From: Escherichia phage inny
Sequence record: MN850601.1
Direction: 5' to 3' (one strand)
Length of the DNA: 64,000 nucleotides
Of this stretch, positions 37,665-57,979 are shown in pieces. The position numbers were made by a program, and so were the translations under genes. The notes beneath the pieces are model-generated. The model saw only the letters and a list, made by a program, of their open reading frames with translations, was not told where the DNA came from and did no database searches. The stretch's first letter is position 1. Each line of letters opens with the position of its first letter.

Positions 37665-37955
37665 TTATAGTAAAACACGTTTTGCACTGCTTGGTGCATT
37701 GTCGAACATGTTTATCACTTTGTCAAGTTTGTGTATTAACTCGTTCGTAATGTTCCACTCTTTGTATGATCTCCATTGTTTCTTATTCTCACCTACCTGG
37801 TGTAAAACTTTGATTGGTGCATTCAAACGTACATTGCGTTCTTTGTCCTCTTCAAAAGAGGCTAACCATTTTTCGTTATGCCCATGAACAGCAATAATAA
37901 TGCCAAAACCATCAAAAGTTTCTGTAATATTCTTAGTTGCTAGTGTGATGTTCAT
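37665..37955 (-). CDS. hypothetical protein
   Basis: 96 aa; first gene of leftward block. Confidence 0.5.
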   Translation of the reverse strand: MNITLATKNITETFDGFGIIIAVHGHNEKWLASFEEDKERNVRLNAPIKVLHQVGENKKQWRSYKEWNITNELIHKLDKVINMFDNAPSSAKRVLL

Positions 37956-38014
37956 ATCTAACCTCTTTTGTTACGATGCACACAGAGTACCAGAAATTAA
38001 TTTCAGATCAAGTA

Positions 38015-42462: not shown

Positions 42463-42678
42463 TATTTTGAAAATTTTTATTTTTATAAAAAGGGGTGTGG
42501 GTTTCATGTACGGAAATCCACCCTCTGAATAATATATCCAGAGTAAATATTATTCTGTACTCTGTTAATAAAGTATTTAATTTGTTTGTTTGACTATGGT
42601 ATCTGATCTTTAAAAGACATACTATCTCTTAACTACTACTTATAACAGAACAGTAAAATCATTTTTATAAAAAGTACA

Positions 42679-42885
42679 AAATTATTTAAAGTTTTTACAG
42701 ATTTTTGGGTACAAATTTTGAAAATGAAAAGTTCAAGTTTGGTCAAAATTATTTAAAGTTTTTGTACGTATTTCTGTCCAGATTTTGAAAATGAAAACTT
42801 CAATTTTTTAAAAATTCCCCAGTTTATTTAAAGTTTTTTTGCCTTTTTCCGTAGAAAAATCAAAAATGAAAAGTTCAATTTCGTG
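42679..42885. repeat. three tandem copies of a ~66-bp unit (ATTTAAAGTTTTT ... TTTGAAAATGAAAAGTTCAA)
   Basis: Direct repeats seen at about 42679, 42746, 42811. Confidence 0.7.
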
Positions 42886-42899
42886 TTTTTATAGGTGTG

Positions 42900-43015
42900 T
42901 TAATGAGAATCATTTTCGTTTGTAAATGAGAATCATTATCATTTAACTATGTAAGTGATAATCATTCTCAGTAAGAGAATGAGAATCATTAGCAAATGAG
43001 AATTTTCTCATTTAG
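42900..43015. promoter_or_regulatory. cluster of five ATGAGAATCATT-type palindromic boxes (Fur-box-like)
   Basis: atgagaatcatt x2, gtgataatcattctca, aatgagaatcatt, aatgagaattttctcatt; ATGAGAATCATTATC matches 14/15 of the Fur consensus core. Confidence 0.45.
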
Positions 43016-43244
43016 AGAATAACGCGCAGGGGCGGTGTTTGTCTCGCGCTCCCGTGTCCCCTCGCCATACAATAAGAATAGCATAACCAACAACAAAAGC
43101 AAGCGATTATTTTTATCTTTACATTTCTTTACAAATTTATTTTAGACGAGCTACCGGCGATCAACCTTCCAACCAGTGCCCCCTGGTATGTTAGCCCCGC
43201 CTTTACGCCGTGGGGGTGGCGTTTCCTCTTCTGTATGTAAAACA

Positions 43245-43272
43245 GTATAAGCCCGATCCCTGGGCTTGTCAA
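43245..43272 (-). promoter_or_regulatory. orphan sigma70-like promoter (TTGACA-N17-TATACT) reading leftward into GC-rich non-coding DNA
   Basis: Reverse complement of tgtcaa...agtata; no ORF with plausible start downstream. Confidence 0.35.
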
Positions 43273-43274
43273 GA

Positions 43275-43541
43275 TTATTTTTTGTTTTCTTGCCAGGATA
43301 GGACACCTAACCAAAAATACATGTCGCCCCGCGCCCCTGGCGGGATCTTGCTTTCCCCGCCGCCACTACAAGCCCATAGATAACCATTAGCGAACGGATC
43401 AAAATGATCTATTTCTTCCACCTTATGATCGCCCAGGTTGAGAACGGTTTCAACCTTTAAGCCCGTTGCGCTTGCTACCTGGTGCACCGTGCCGCCTTGC
43501 CAGCCTAATGAGTGCATGAGGTGTAGAGTAGTATTTGTCAT
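43275..43541 (-). CDS. hypothetical protein
   Basis: 88 aa; led on minus strand by hairpin + CATCAAAGAAAGGG RBS like the rightward cassettes. Confidence 0.5.
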   Translation of the reverse strand: MTNTTLHLMHSLGWQGGTVHQVASATGLKVETVLNLGDHKVEEIDHFDPFANGYLWACSGGGESKIPPGARGDMYFWLGVLSWQENKK

Positions 43542-43544
43542 GGT

Positions 43545-43640
43545 ATCGCCCTTTCTTTGATGTGCGCCCTGGTTGGCGCGGTAGAAAGATAATAGCCCTT
43601 TCCTTTATAGATAGCAAGCAAAAAAAAGAAATGAAAAAAA
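43545..43640 (-). promoter_or_regulatory. promoter + stem-loop cassette (minus-strand copy)
   Basis: On minus strand: TTGCTT-N17-TATTAT, then hairpin GCGCC-N6-GGCGC, then ACATCAAAGAAAGGG. Confidence 0.4.
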
Positions 43641-43664
43641 GATTAAAAAAGGGGTTGACGTTCC

Positions 43665-43693
43665 TCACCTGGTAGCGTATTATTCATCTTGTC
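43665..43693 (+). promoter_or_regulatory. sigma70-like promoter (TTGACG-N17-TATTAT)
   Basis: Divergent from minus-strand cassette. Confidence 0.4.
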
Positions 43694-43810
43694 GAGGGGG
43701 GCGAGGCACAACGACAATAAACAAAAGGAGGGCGCAATGTAGGACGGGCAAAGGTGAGGATCTCCATAATCCACCGTCACAATAACATTACTTATAAAAG
43801 GTTGATAACG

Positions 43811-43906
43811 ATGATCAAGAAAGAAAACAGCTTGACGGTTGGAACGATTAACGCTATCATTCTTGCCGTTCCATTTTGGATTGTAGTTGCGGTTATTATT
43901 TTTTAA
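43811..43906 (+). CDS. tiny hydrophobic peptide (31 aa), speculative
   Basis: MIKKENSLTVGTINAIILAVPFWIVVAVIIF; weak SD. Confidence 0.25.
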   Translation: MIKKENSLTVGTINAIILAVPFWIVVAVIIF

Positions 43907-43914
43907 AAATATTC

Positions 43915-43970
43915 TTGACAACGTTTTTTAATCTGATAAGATGTATCACATAGGGCGGCAATAGTGCCGC
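43915..43970 (+). promoter_or_regulatory. early promoter + 5' stem-loop cassette
   Basis: TTGACA-N16-TAAGAT, then CATAGG + hairpin GCGGCA-ATAG-TGCCGC. Confidence 0.55.
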
Positions 43971-43994
43971 TCATAACAGAAGAGAGAAATAATC

Positions 43995-52996: not shown

Positions 52997-53015
52997 TCAA
53001 TATAGGAATCATATC

Positions 53016-53246
53016 ATGATCGAACAAATTAAACGCGCTGAAGCTATTAACGGCAATGTGATCTATTCTGTCAGCAATAACGAAAAAGGCGTACCCTATG
53101 CAGCGGTGATAGTACAGCCTGACGGTGATTATTGGTTTACTGTATACGGATCTTATTCTTTTGGGCGTCCAGTACATGATAAAATTTTGAAAGTAGCTAA
53201 TCCCACTGGGAAGAATATCACAGTAGAAAAATTTTTTGAAAAATAA
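53016..53246 (+). CDS. hypothetical protein
   Basis: 76 aa; follows cassette. Confidence 0.5.
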   Translation: MIEQIKRAEAINGNVIYSVSNNEKGVPYAAVIVQPDGDYWFTVYGSYSFGRPVHDKILKVANPTGKNITVEKFFEK

Positions 53247-53321
53247 CTTGCTTTATAGCCTCTGTTAACTTATAGTTATCGTGTAGGGCAAATCATTTTA
53301 AACGGTAAACGAGGAATCACC

Positions 53322-53705
53322 ATGAGCAATATCATCAACCTGGCGGCTACTGTAAACGGTAAAGATTTTAACGGCGCTGTAGATCGTGATCCTATGTGGT
53401 GCTTATCAGTGTTTAAAGGTGACTTGGTTGAAGTTAGAACAACCGAAGGGTATAGCGATGATTATAAATGCGAGATCCATTTACATAACTGGTACACGGG
53501 TAAAACTTATGCGCTGAATCACGCGTTTATCGGGAAAATTGAATATCGCGAGATGATCGACGAAGAAACGGGGCAAGATTTTAGCCAGCATGTTTATATT
53601 CGTTCCGAAACATTAGCCGAACGTTTGATCGAGAAAATGAAAGCAAAAAATAAAATTAATTTATCTCATTGGATTGATATAACAAACGATCCGGCTTATA
53701 AGTAA
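53322..53705 (+). CDS. hypothetical protein
   Basis: 127 aa; GAGGAA SD. Confidence 0.55.
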   Translation: MSNIINLAATVNGKDFNGAVDRDPMWCLSVFKGDLVEVRTTEGYSDDYKCEIHLHNWYTGKTYALNHAFIGKIEYREMIDEETGQDFSQHVYIRSETLAERLIEKMKAKNKINLSHWIDITNDPAYK

Positions 53706-53719
53706 ATAACATTTCACAC

Positions 53720-53748
53720 CAGGGCGCACAAAGCGCCCTTTCTTTTTA
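53720..53748 (+). terminator. rho-independent terminator
   Basis: GGGCGC-ACAAA-GCGCCCTTTCTTTTT. Confidence 0.55.
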
Positions 53749-53951
53749 CCTAAAGAAAGATGATAGCTTTTACCTATCAAAAACGTTCACCGAAAAAAGT
53801 GAATAGATCGCGGTATCGAGCTAATCAAGGAGCAGATGAACAACCATACCATGAAGATCATAAGGCGCTTACAACGTGTTTTAGACCGCTTATTTTTAAT
53901 TTCTTCATGCAACTATCTGGCAAAAACAGCCTTTTTCTTGTCTTTCCCCTT

Positions 53952-54025
53952 AAATGATAATCATTCTTATCTATAGCTGATTATTTATGCAATAAATTGC
54001 ATAATGCAATAATGATAATCATTCC
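53952..54025. promoter_or_regulatory. two Fur-box-like palindromes
   Basis: AAATGATAATCATTCTTATC and ATAATGATAATCATTC against consensus GATAATGATAATCATTATC. Confidence 0.45.
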
Positions 54026-54319
54026 TAACTTAAGACCATCTAACCTATAAAATAATAAGTTATCTAACTAAATTAAAACTAATTATCTCACTTTTATTTA
54101 TAACTTACTGTTACTATCTCATTGATAACATTGTATTAAACAACAATAACTAATATAAATCATTACTAAGCTAAATATAATCTATCTAACCCTTAAAACT
54201 ACAATTATAATCTATCGAATTGTTGCACAAAGTAACTATTAAATTGTTAGTAACATTACTAAATAATTCACATCCTATCTATTTATGATCTAATCTTTAC
54301 CTTCCTATCTATTACTTAG

Positions 54320-54371
54320 ATAATCATTTCATACAGTAACCATTTCATGTAGTAATCATTCCATACAATAA
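54320..54371. repeat. three tandem ~17-bp iteron-like repeats
   Basis: taatcatttcatacagtaac / catttcatgtagtaat / cattccatacaataac. Confidence 0.6.
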
Positions 54372-54503
54372 CTATAACAAGAAATATAATTCGCAAGCGT
54401 ATCATTAGCAGCCTATGCCGGACACATAGGCGGCTAATAATAACGCAACTACACACCCCACATAATAACCATCACCGATAGTCATTATTTGTGCTTATGT
54501 AGC

Positions 54504-54563
54504 TTGCAACAACTGCAAGCGCAACAATATACAATTGTATATTGTATCCCTTACATTGTTGCG
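54504..54563. repeat. nested inverted repeats around a perfect 20-bp palindrome
   Basis: TTGCA-ACAAC-TGCAA; GCAACAAT ... ATTGTTGC flanking CAATATACAATTGTATATTG. Confidence 0.6.
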
Positions 54564-54892
54564 GTGCGTTATTATTAGCTAATGTTTAGAACATTGGCTA
54601 TAATATAAGCTAAATAATAAGCTATACAATAATAAACATCGTGAATAATGATGCTGATGATCATAATGCGCCACCTTCCAGGGGGCGCTATGTGAACACA
54701 AAGAAATCTTTCTTGTCAAGAAAAATATTAACACTATTGCGCAAAATTATTTATATATGAATAGATGGTTTTTCATACTATTGTTATTATTTATCGGGCA
54801 TAGTTATAGCCTATTTGTTGAGCCTACTCTTTTAAAAGCGCAATAAAGTAGAATTATCTTGATTTTTAGTCGGTTTTATAGTACAGAAAGTA

Positions 54893-54915
54893 TGCAAATG
54901 ATAATCATTATCAAC
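54893..54915. promoter_or_regulatory. near-consensus Fur-box-like palindrome
   Basis: AAATGATAATCATTATC matches 16/17 of Fur consensus TAATGATAATCATTATC. Confidence 0.5.
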
Positions 54916-55078
54916 TATCTTCCACGGGTGGCACTATTTCACGCCAGATCATTTCATTTGGCAAGGTGTATATAGATGTTTAGACTTGCCAAGCCATTGA
55001 TTTACTTAGAATTTATCTGTTTTGTTGTGAGTAGTACCTTTCTTGCTCAGAAAATAATCAAAAGTCTTATAAGTCATT

Positions 55079-55110
55079 GAATGATAATGCAAATGATAAT
55101 TATTCTCATT
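55079..55110. promoter_or_regulatory. tandem Fur-box-like half-sites
   Basis: GAATGATAATGCAAATGATAATTATTCTCATT. Confidence 0.4.
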
Positions 55111-55229
55111 GATATTTGAGGGGGACGGTCGGCAGAAATCGGGGGGGCGCTGAAAATCGCGTTAAGCACCTCTCGCAAGCGAGCAGTGTTTTGCGGCAAG
55201 TTATTGATATTATTGACTTTACGCTTATG

Positions 55230-55342
55230 AAAAGGGGGTGTGTCGAAATAAATCGGGTATACCGGAAAATTTTTGTGGCATAGATATTTATTTGTCTATA
55301 TTATGTACAAAGGGGTGTGTTAAAAATAATAGGTATATATAG
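55230..55342 (+). promoter_or_regulatory. two copies of conserved motif AAAGGGG(G)TGTGT-N11-12-GGTATA upstream of rightward late-type block
   Basis: aaagggggtgtgtcgaaataaatcgggtata and aaaggggtgtgttaaaaataataggtatata; partial third copy near 42489. Confidence 0.35.
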
Positions 55343-55470
55343 AATAATTGATAGGGAAATCCTATACTAATCCCTCCATTAATGATGTTCCTAGATTACT
55401 GTTCTTGTAATAGATGAAAAGACGCTGTATAATGTGTGGCATGAAACGTAAACTTATAAAGGAGTCTGAT

Positions 55471-55848
55471 ATGTGTGTCCCTCTCAGCAGTCCACTGCTG
55501 TTAGAATTTTACAAAGCATGGATGGAAGATCATTCCTCAATGCATCGTGAGAATGTTGGTTTGTGTATTTGCCTTATGGATTATCTGGCAACCACTATGT
55601 CAAAGAAAAAACCTACGCAAGAAGATATAGAACATTTCAAGATGGTTCGTAGTAAAACGTTAGAAGAGATGAAATTGCAATTCACGTGTGCTGGGCTATC
55701 CTCCTTCCTGCCCTTTAATGATGACCTTCTGTGTTATGAAGATGAAGGTAAGAAACATTCTTGCCATACTAACCCAGGGAGATTGCAGTGGGTGAAAGAT
55801 CGTATTGCCGATTCATGTTTGGTGTTAGGGGGTGGTAATGAAAAGTAA
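55471..55848 (+). CDS. hypothetical protein, paralog family A (LLEFYKAW...CHTN..RLQWVKDRI)
   Basis: Track ORF 55414..55848 trimmed to ATG with AAGGAG SD (MCVPLSSPLLLEFYKAWMEDH...). Confidence 0.55.
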   Translation: MCVPLSSPLLLEFYKAWMEDHSSMHRENVGLCICLMDYLATTMSKKKPTQEDIEHFKMVRSKTLEEMKLQFTCAGLSSFLPFNDDLLCYEDEGKKHSCHTNPGRLQWVKDRIADSCLVLGGGNEK

Positions 55849-56206
55849 TATTCCGTTGAGTAGTGCAGCTTTAATACGATTCTATAAAGCATGGATTGCC
55901 AACCATCCGGCAATGAATCGCACAACGAGTGGCTTGTGTGGTTGTCTGGTAGATTATGTAGATGATTTTGTTGGCGAGGTAACTAGAGAAGAAGATAAAA
56001 GATGGCGTGATCGTTTGTTGGATAGTTTGAAATACGAAATGAGGAAACAATTTACATGTGCAGGACTGGACTACAATCTTCCGTTCAATGTAGATTGCAT
56101 GGATTACCTTTCAGAGTGTATAGACTTGGCGTGTCATACCAACACGTTACGTCTTCAATGGGTGAAAGACAGAATCGAAGATGCAAATAATGCTTGCATT
56201 GAATAG
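55838..56206 (+). CDS. hypothetical protein, paralog family A
   Basis: Track ORF trimmed to ATG (MKSNIPLSSAALIRFYKAWIANH...); shares GLCGCLVDY, FTCAGL, LPFN, CHTNTLRLQWVKDRIED. Confidence 0.55.
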   Translation: MKSNIPLSSAALIRFYKAWIANHPAMNRTTSGLCGCLVDYVDDFVGEVTREEDKRWRDRLLDSLKYEMRKQFTCAGLDYNLPFNVDCMDYLSECIDLACHTNTLRLQWVKDRIEDANNACIE

Positions 56207-57470: not shown

Positions 57471-57683
57471 ATGTGTAATGACAGATACATTCTTCGTGTA
57501 TCTGATAAGTCTCCTATGTTTGACTGGCGGGGCTGGTGGCTACTAGCTCCGATGCAAGGTCTGACAGACGTGGAAAAGGAGGCTTATGTGTATACAAAAG
57601 AAGAGATAGAAGATAGCCTTTATTTGACAGATAACATTAAGAATGGTATCTTTGAGTGTAAATTGAAAGGAGAGGAAGAATGA
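57471..57683 (+). CDS. hypothetical protein
   Basis: 70 aa; no clear SD. Confidence 0.4.
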   Translation: MCNDRYILRVSDKSPMFDWRGWWLLAPMQGLTDVEKEAYVYTKEEIEDSLYLTDNIKNGIFECKLKGEEE

Positions 57684-57979
57684 CTATTACAGAAAAACTG
57701 CGCTGTATTGCAAAGCAAAGTGGAGAAGGTTTATGGTTTCCTATTGAGGAAATTATTCAGGACTGTTATGATCAGGCTAAGACTGGCAAATACTCCAAAG
57801 CATTTAAACCGTCTGTTTTCGGTTTGGATGACTATCCAAAAAATGAACAAGCAAAGAAACGACAAGTTGATTTGATTGATCTTGCTATGGAAGCACTACG
57901 AGAGCATGGGCTTAGTAAGGTGTATGCTTTAAACACCAAAGAGGGTTTTGTAGATTCAGTGATCGTAGATTGGTATTAA
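57680..57979 (+). CDS. hypothetical protein
   Basis: 99 aa; AAAGGAGAGG SD. Confidence 0.55.
   Translation: MTITEKLRCIAKQSGEGLWFPIEEIIQDCYDQAKTGKYSKAFKPSVFGLDDYPKNEQAKKRQVDLIDLAMEALREHGLSKVYALNTKEGFVDSVIVDWY

Follow-up and report, generated by a model that had tools for sequence, protein, structure and literature searches.

The DNA analysed here, called the window, is a stretch of 64,000 nt from Escherichia phage inny (sequence record MN850601.1), and all coordinates are positions in it. A preliminary description made from the letters alone had pointed to a gene desert near the right side of the window, free of any open reading frame (ORF) of at least 60 amino acids (aa); within 53958–55413 there is indeed no such ORF on either strand, and none lies in 53977–55471. 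The sequence features listed in that description were all found in the region, with small corrections. The description had proposed that the desert was either a replication origin or a packaging/terminal-repeat boundary. The second of these alternatives is supported by the homology of 54821–55164 to the direct terminal repeat (DTR) of phage phi92, and nothing specific supports the first. The features on which this finding is built are the following:

54821–55164, plus strand: DTR, present as one collapsed copy, homologous to DTR-L and DTR-R of phi92

54811–54823, plus strand: putative left cut site, CTATTTGTTG^AGC, with GTTGAGC across the terminus

55161–55167, plus strand: GTTAAGC at the putative right cut site, ...AAAATCGCGTTA^AGCAC, inside the GC-rich island

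55118–55200, plus strand: GC-rich island (GC 0.61), which contains the right cut site

The region is 93–97% identical to approximately 46 complete genomes of Justusliebigvirus, which are phi92-like myophages of the Stephanstirmvirinae, and its closest match is the phage EmilieFrey. The comparison with related phages suggested in the preliminary description showed that the records of phi92, BME3, Mt1B1_P17 and phi1_175008 end at the DTR boundaries of the window. In the phi92 record (NC_023693), DTR-L is annotated at 1–343 and DTR-R at 148270–148612, and 54821–55164 aligns end to end with both copies at approximately 95% identity. The phi92 match to the region ends at the last base of that record, under the annotation "right end direct terminal repeat". 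The similarity to the right end of phi92 stops exactly at 55164, and the similarity to its left end starts exactly at 54821. For BME3, PhageTerm analysis of reads has given a DTR of 342 bp (PMC12210895). Its record begins and ends with the same 342 nt, which fall on the same two boundaries. In the Phapecoctavirus phage Mt1B1_P17, the terminal 328 bases are identical at both ends and align to these boundaries, and the record of the Klebsiella phage phi1_175008 terminates at the same ...CGCGTT. The boundaries thus agree within 1 nt in four records from three clades. One paper states that Stephanstirmvirinae genomes end in direct terminal repeats (PMC12695924). A scan of IMG/VR with a 23-mer of the DTR gave no match.

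The left boundary reads ...CTATTTGTTG^AGCC and the right boundary ...AAAATCGCGTTA^AGCACC, and the counterparts in Phapecoctavirus are TGTTG^AGCA and CGCGTT^AAGCAC; therefore, GTTR^AGC is common to both boundaries, in the same orientation. The 7-mer GTTRAGC has only eight occurrences in the 64 kb, both strands together. The word CTATTTGTTG to the left of the left cut occurs once in the window and is reiterated 2–5 times in relatives, and this site is the chief hot spot for indels in the region. The GC island at 55130–55200, which the preliminary description had listed but not explained, has a GC of 0.59 versus 0.31 for the whole region, and it contains the right terminus. The iterons and the palindrome of that description lie outside the DTR, 250–500 bp to its left. 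The GC island was also considered as a Fur-controlled small RNA with a terminator, and this candidate was rejected: its fold was no better than that of shuffled sequences (z = +0.98), and its conserved part is the terminus.

We believe, with a probability of about 0.85, that in this region the two physical ends of a phi92-like virion chromosome are joined, and that the assembly holds the DTR once. By homology, the virion DNA of inny is predicted with high confidence to end at 54821 and at 55163/55164 and to carry the repeat twice; that the window carries it once is due to the assembly and the opening of the record. Several points weigh against this. The termini of inny itself are placed by homology only, because the window has one repeat copy and comes without reads, and GTTRAGC is by itself too short to specify a cut. 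In addition, the "DTR-L" feature of the BME3 record (PP239276.1, 146957–147298) lies 73 nt away from the identical ends, and immediately before its final 415 nt the same record repeats part of the right-end region in an additional copy that is not colinear. Both are probably annotation or assembly artefacts, and the BME3 boundaries used here were taken from the identical ends of the record and not from the coordinates of its DTR feature. Compared with the DTRs of phi92 and other Stephanstirmvirinae, that of inny has the same length within 1–2 bp, the same boundaries, the same flanking desert and the same first and last genes. There is no structural difference, apart from the single CTATTTGTTG word here and up to five in some relatives. 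The DTR itself is already known for phi92, and the cut motif common to both termini and to three clades goes beyond the annotations of the records.

In this study, we propose a mechanism by analogy with T7-type DTR phages. Replication would produce head-to-tail concatemers with one DTR between unit genomes, and the terminase would cut sequence-specifically, at GTTG^AGC on the left boundary and at GTTA^AGC on the right. The DTR would be duplicated in the process, so that each virion has a copy at both ends. Under this scheme, 53977–54820 would be the untranslated right genome end, and 55165–55471 the untranslated left-end leader before the first early gene. The surrounding non-coding DNA would control end processing, packaging and end-proximal transcription in cis. 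Among its parts would be an element of approximately 185 nt that functions in folded, single-stranded form (from the minus strand; RNA or single-stranded DNA, ssDNA), 240 bp to the left of the DTR, and sites resembling operators of the host regulator Fur, two inside the DTR and two at the left edge. The cutting at GTTR^AGC is modelled on those phages, and the parts given here to the folded element and to Fur in end processing or end-proximal regulation are speculative. Like T7 and T3, whose repeats are 160–230 bp long, inny would have a repeat that is short, exact and non-permuted, its early genes would begin directly inside the left end, and inverted repeats lie to the left of the concatemer junction in both cases. 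Chung, Nardone and Hinkle are said to have proposed in 1990 that a hairpin at such an inverted repeat of T7 is a packaging intermediate. Unlike T7 and T3, inny is a myovirus of about 147 kb from an unrelated lineage. The T7 scheme also differs in strand, since a fold-back primer for rightward synthesis would be on the plus strand, whereas the element here favours the minus strand.

The desert is well conserved. Among ten Justusliebigvirus genomes, the non-coding DNA at 53750–55350 has an identity of 0.94–1.00 in most 50-nt bins, versus 0.86–0.92 for the gene on the left and 0.42–0.72 for the genes on the right side. A gene desert of 1.5–2 kb is found in the same place in phAPEC8, phiWec188 and the Klebsiella phage KP13-26. 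The desert evolves more slowly than the flanking genes and is syntenic in relatives; therefore, it is functional DNA and not junk. Judged by these identities, non-coding DNA is under stronger constraint here than the adjacent genes. Two further groups of matches were noticed. In the metagenome contig ERZ1026999 NODE-11 (147,732 bp), which probably represents the same phage, the folded element and its flanks are identical to the window, and the element has an equal covariance-model score. Four to five records named "Campylobacter phage", with C. jejuni as the host (MG065639, MG065645, MG065656 and MG065689), are approximately 94% identical to the full region; they are probably mislabelled or contaminant genomes.

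The folded element is the following:

54397–54582, minus strand: multi-hairpin element, closed by a helix of 14–15 bp (GCTAATAATAACGCA / TGCGTTATTATTAGC)

Its block at 54401–54524 is the only part of the region that plain BLASTN still matches in approximately 65 more distant genomes. When 206 nt around the element were folded and compared with shuffled sequences, z was −8.6 for the minus strand and −6.0 for the plus strand. In a first alignment of fifteen sequences from four clades, 51 minus-strand pairs were found; both partners have changed in 11 of them, and no pair is broken. All 714 cells (100%) were paired, a value that none of 500 column shuffles reached, and controls with slid partners were 22–54% paired. 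A wider alignment of 17 sequences, in which clades from IMG/VR and metagenomes were added, gave 45 pairs with 13 compensatory ones, and the few broken cells were all in one hairpin. The pattern scan of IMG/VR and metagenomes for the element returned 16 loci, 3 of which were chance matches. Nine pairs use G-U on the minus strand, which would be A.C mismatches on the plus strand, and the reverse case did not occur. A covariance model scored 167.5 bits on the minus strand versus 34.7 bits on the plus strand; it found one copy per genome, including one in the window, and none in a T5 locus.

The preliminary description had drawn attention to a palindrome of 20 bp, CAATATACAATTGTATATTG, which is indeed perfect at 54525–54544, and to its outer arms, GCAACAAT and ATTGTTGC, which lie at 54521–54528 and 54555–54562. 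This palindrome is one hairpin of the folded element. In relatives, its stem is kept and its loop varies (AATT, CATG, GAGA, CGA), and the whole hairpin is absent in Phapecoctavirus and the Klebsiella phages. The compensatory changes argue for a folded single strand and against palindromes that bind a protein as duplex. No earlier description of the element was found, and it is apparently undescribed.

If a non-coding RNA gene occupies the core of the desert, then 54397–54582 would be transcribed leftwards from the minus strand as a structured RNA, possibly from promoters at the sites that overlap the Fur boxes of the DTR, with a role in, for example, packaging, anti-defence or regulation. We hold this reading tentatively, at somewhat short of even odds. 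It agrees with the covariation and the absence of broken pairs in the first alignment, with the nine G-U pairs confined to the minus strand, and with the stronger minus-strand values of both the fold and the covariance model. The GC skew of 54001–55000 is negative, opposite to that of the surrounding plus-strand genes, and −35/−10-like sites on the minus strand lie over both Fur boxes of the DTR (54934 to 54907 and 55109 to 55081), an arrangement that is classical for a repressor. These sites match 9/12 promoter positions. However, in the whole region 15 promoter-like (sigma-70) sites were counted versus 15.0 expected from shuffled sequences, and none is convincingly conserved, so promoters cannot be called from sequence. 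Among 14 loci scanned upstream of the element, no promoter was found at a constant distance; a −10-like hexamer abuts the closing helix in some clades, and the start would then fall inside the helix. No intrinsic terminator was found downstream on the minus strand, and a literature search found no transcriptome for this phage group. A scan of 53000–56000 against Rfam (15), with E up to 10, returned only noise (best E = 0.86) and nothing on the element. The lack of a promoter and terminator of its own makes a folded ssDNA possible. A DNA structure would also account for these data, given that several of the hairpins have loops of 3 nt and that folded ssDNA tolerates G.T pairs as well. The pRNA of phage phi29 is a packaging RNA of approximately 174 nt encoded at the genome end. 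It resembles the folded element in size and position only and belongs to a different packaging system; this RNA is in Rfam, and no match to it was found in 53000–56000.

The Fur-like boxes mentioned in the preliminary description turned out to be statistically the strongest feature of the region. Sites were scored against the 19-bp E. coli consensus GATAATGATAATCATTATC and its 7-1-7 reading TGATAATnATTATCA, with a dinucleotide model of the AT-rich region for the expected numbers. Six non-overlapping sites match at least 14/19 positions, versus 0.31 expected, and none of 1000 simulations reached six; three sites match at least 15/19, versus 0.05 expected. The 13-bp core AATGAKAATCATT, with at most 1 mismatch, occurs 14 times in the 64 kb versus 0.77 expected, and only one of these 14 matches lies outside both this region and a second desert at 42.9 kb. 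The sites of this region, none of which is assigned to a strand, are as follows:

53950–53968 (14/19) and 54008–54026 (15/19): Fur-like pair, 58 bp apart, found by consensus match

54644–54668: degenerate double Fur-like box (14/19), followed by a GC hairpin GCGCC...GGCGC at 54669–54689

54894–54913: strongest Fur-like box, 17/19 at 54894–54912, with TGATAATCATTATCA at 54899–54913 as a perfect 7-1-7

55083–55113: overlapping Fur-like boxes (14–15/19), 50–80 nt inside the right terminus

The strongest box lies 73 nt inside the left terminus, and no block of the DTR is better conserved across genera than 55083–55113. Both sets of DTR boxes are at the same positions in phAPEC8, phiWec188/181, ZCKP1 and nepoznato, where the DNA between them is approximately 60% identical, and the pair spaced by 58 bp is also present in the Klebsiella phages phi1_175008 and KP13-26. 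We infer from how well the sites match and how well they are conserved that host Fur may bind them. As in natural E. coli Fur operators, the boxes form arrays of overlapping or adjacent sites, with 14–16/19 at five sites besides the one of 17/19. Unlike those operators, they are located in the DTR of a virulent phage and not before an iron-uptake gene, and no convincing sigma-70 promoter is tied to them. Literature searches returned nothing relevant on Fur boxes in virulent coliphages, and a preprint on a receptor screen of 255 phages does not mention fur. The conserved Fur-like sites in the DTR are apparently undescribed.

The AATGATAATCATT palindromes could instead be operators of a phage regulator or a terminase subunit, or AT-rich promoter elements (GATAAT resembles TATAAT), which we consider unlikely. 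They cluster at the genome ends, where the terminase small subunit or an early repressor would act, and a gene for a "putative transcription factor" is located approximately 2.6 kb downstream, at 57680–57979. Coding may explain some of the conservation of the first box (53950), which lies over the codons next to the stop of a 46-aa ORF. However, the match goes past the 13-bp core to the 19-bp consensus (17/19; 16/19 in relatives) and includes the perfect 7-1-7. The boxes of the second cluster, AATGAGAATCATT, have the sequence of the natural Fur site of aerobactin (iucA). A similar array is also found in unrelated T5-like phages of the same hosts, for which a host factor fits better than a lineage-specific phage protein.

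The second gene desert, at 42463–43990 (approximately 1.5 kb), contains a 67-bp tandem repeat at 42677–42807, then a Fur-like array and then a GC-rich stretch. The array consists of 4–5 AATGAGAATCATT boxes at 42899–43010, each matching 15–16/19. Further to the right, 43116–43241 is 84–88% identical in phages from many other genera, such as Klebsiella BIS47, Proteus Mydo, Cronobacter CR3, Pectobacterium phiTE and Salmonella SSE121. The segment 43110–43300 folds with z = −2.56 on the plus strand and −0.45 on the minus strand, with a closing helix, and with a hairpin and a U-run near 43255–43290; no Rfam match was found for this segment. We regard 43116–43241 (plus strand) as a candidate conserved non-coding RNA.

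Outside the family, the closest analogue of the region at 54–55 kb is the LTR-boundary/injection-stop (iss) region of T5-like phages, which has been described as a desert of approximately 1.7 kb that exceeds its neighbours in conservation and is dense in direct repeats, palindromes and sites for host factors (10.1101/866236). The likeness is that of a conserved, repeat-rich desert at the boundary of a terminal repeat. In T5_ev219 (NC_134263.1, 9800–10400), 5–6 Fur-like boxes were found beside DnaA boxes, and this stretch matches 42910–42990 of the window, within the second Fur-box array, with 76% identity. The in silico study of the T5 iss region does not mention Fur (10.1101/866236). T5 differs in its paired DnaA boxes, its repeat of approximately 10 kb and its two-step injection; the region of the window has no DnaA boxes, and the folded element was not found in the T5 locus.

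The remaining alternative is that the AT-rich part of the desert is an iteron-type replication origin, with the folded element next to it as a site of single-strand priming or loading. It would be made up of the following features in 53977–54400:

53977–54320, plus strand: AT-rich spacer (GC about 0.27) with 9 oriented ATCTAW words

54321–54372, no strand assigned: tandem repeat of 16 bp, the "iterons" of the preliminary description (Tandem Repeats Finder: 3.2 copies, 75% matches)

The GC of 53950–54820 is 0.285, the region is very highly conserved, and the array of short words is biased in strand, with 9 ATCTAW words on the plus strand versus 1 on the minus strand. The repeated motif of the preliminary description, TAATCTATC, is present in two exact copies, at 54178 and 54208, inside this oriented array. 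A strand-specific cluster of hairpins adjoins the AT-rich part, and hairpins with 3-nt loops are typical of single-strand initiation signals. Nevertheless, we consider an origin here very unlikely. The three iterons of about 17 bp are a true tandem repeat, but with a period of 16, and their number is not conserved as an iteron signature would lead one to expect: there is 1 copy in ECGD1, 2 in phi92 and 3 in the window. The repeat was not seen in sister genera, where the spacer has other repeated words, although no dedicated repeat search was made. The spacer is A/C-rich on the plus strand in all clades, and its repeated words differ between clades. The AT-rich element expected of an origin is present, but DnaA boxes are absent from the region even when 1 mismatch is allowed, versus 0.5 per kb in the rest of the window. 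The GC-skew analysis proposed earlier did not favour an origin either: 54–55 kb has a local negative blip without an inflection, and the only turn in the window, the cumulative minimum, is at approximately 38 kb, at a switch of gene strand. No initiator gene is annotated alongside, and the second desert at 42.5–44.0 kb is at least as origin-like. At 37900–38000, both the gene strand and the GC skew change sign, with divergent transcription, and this is the only cumulative-skew minimum in the window. In rV5, the skew turn has likewise been attributed to a strand switch (PMC3606486).

The margins of the desert carry three further features:

53721–53739, plus strand: intrinsic terminator, with a 7-bp stem of which 6 pairs are GC, then TTCTTTTT

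53836–53976, plus strand: small ORF (46 aa) that contains a hydrophobic stretch and has been annotated in the phages EmilieFrey and PaulScherrer

55165–55471, plus strand: left-end leader between the DTR and the first gene, with repeats and a sigma-70-like site

The terminator ends the last right-arm operon, downstream of a Gp30.8-like gene at 53322–53705 (compare the annotation of phi92 gp248). The 46-aa ORF aligns over its full length, with 37–42% amino-acid identity, in Phapecoctavirus loci, and it is the only small ORF kept at full length across genera; it is probably a real gene. Its end covers the first 27 nt of the interval given in the preliminary description, which began at 53950. No PHROG family was found for ten small ORFs in and around the desert, this one included. 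The annotation of the desert varies by pipeline, from 0 to eleven "hypothetical proteins", with 7–11 in some records, and the "repeat_region" annotated in phage arall is merely the 16-bp tandem repeat. There are no tRNAs in the 64-kb window, and the two IHF sites of the region are not informative.

In the leader, the repeat GGGGTGTGT-N-AAATAA-N-GGTATA occurs in two copies, at 55232–55256 and 55309–55333, and it is also found at 42489–42499. The second copy and its right flank, to approximately 55360, are conserved across genera, and the first copy is not. The 10-mer core of the repeat is not enriched in the window. This repeat could be a phage-specific promoter or binding site. A sigma-70-like site, TTGTAA-17-TATAAT, lies at 55405–55433. 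The motif AAGGGGTGTG was also considered as a phage promoter, and it was rejected: 5 matches versus 2.5 expected were not significant.

As observations, both the folded element and the Fur sites are new and well supported, and the following suggestions on their functions are derived from sequence comparison. The Stephanstirmvirinae and, for the Fur sites, also the T5-like phages may wire the host iron sensor Fur into their genome ends, which we regard as a speculative and rather improbable idea. Fur may gate end-proximal transcription, including a leftward transcript with the folded element, or it may be an architectural host factor for end processing, like IHF at lambda cos. Another possibility is that Fur is titrated by the roughly ten sites that each replicating genome carries, which would de-repress host iron uptake. 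The folded element may represent a new type of structured RNA, or of ssDNA signal, that is associated with genome ends and needed by DTR myophages for packaging or replication. The practical value of the DTR boundaries is that they show where the genome should be opened and that one copy of the DTR is missing from the assembly. If Fur truly binds, inny would be a rare case of a virulent phage that reads the iron status of its host or uses a metalloregulator structurally at its chromosome ends, and the same clue in the long-enigmatic injection-stop region of T5 would become testable.

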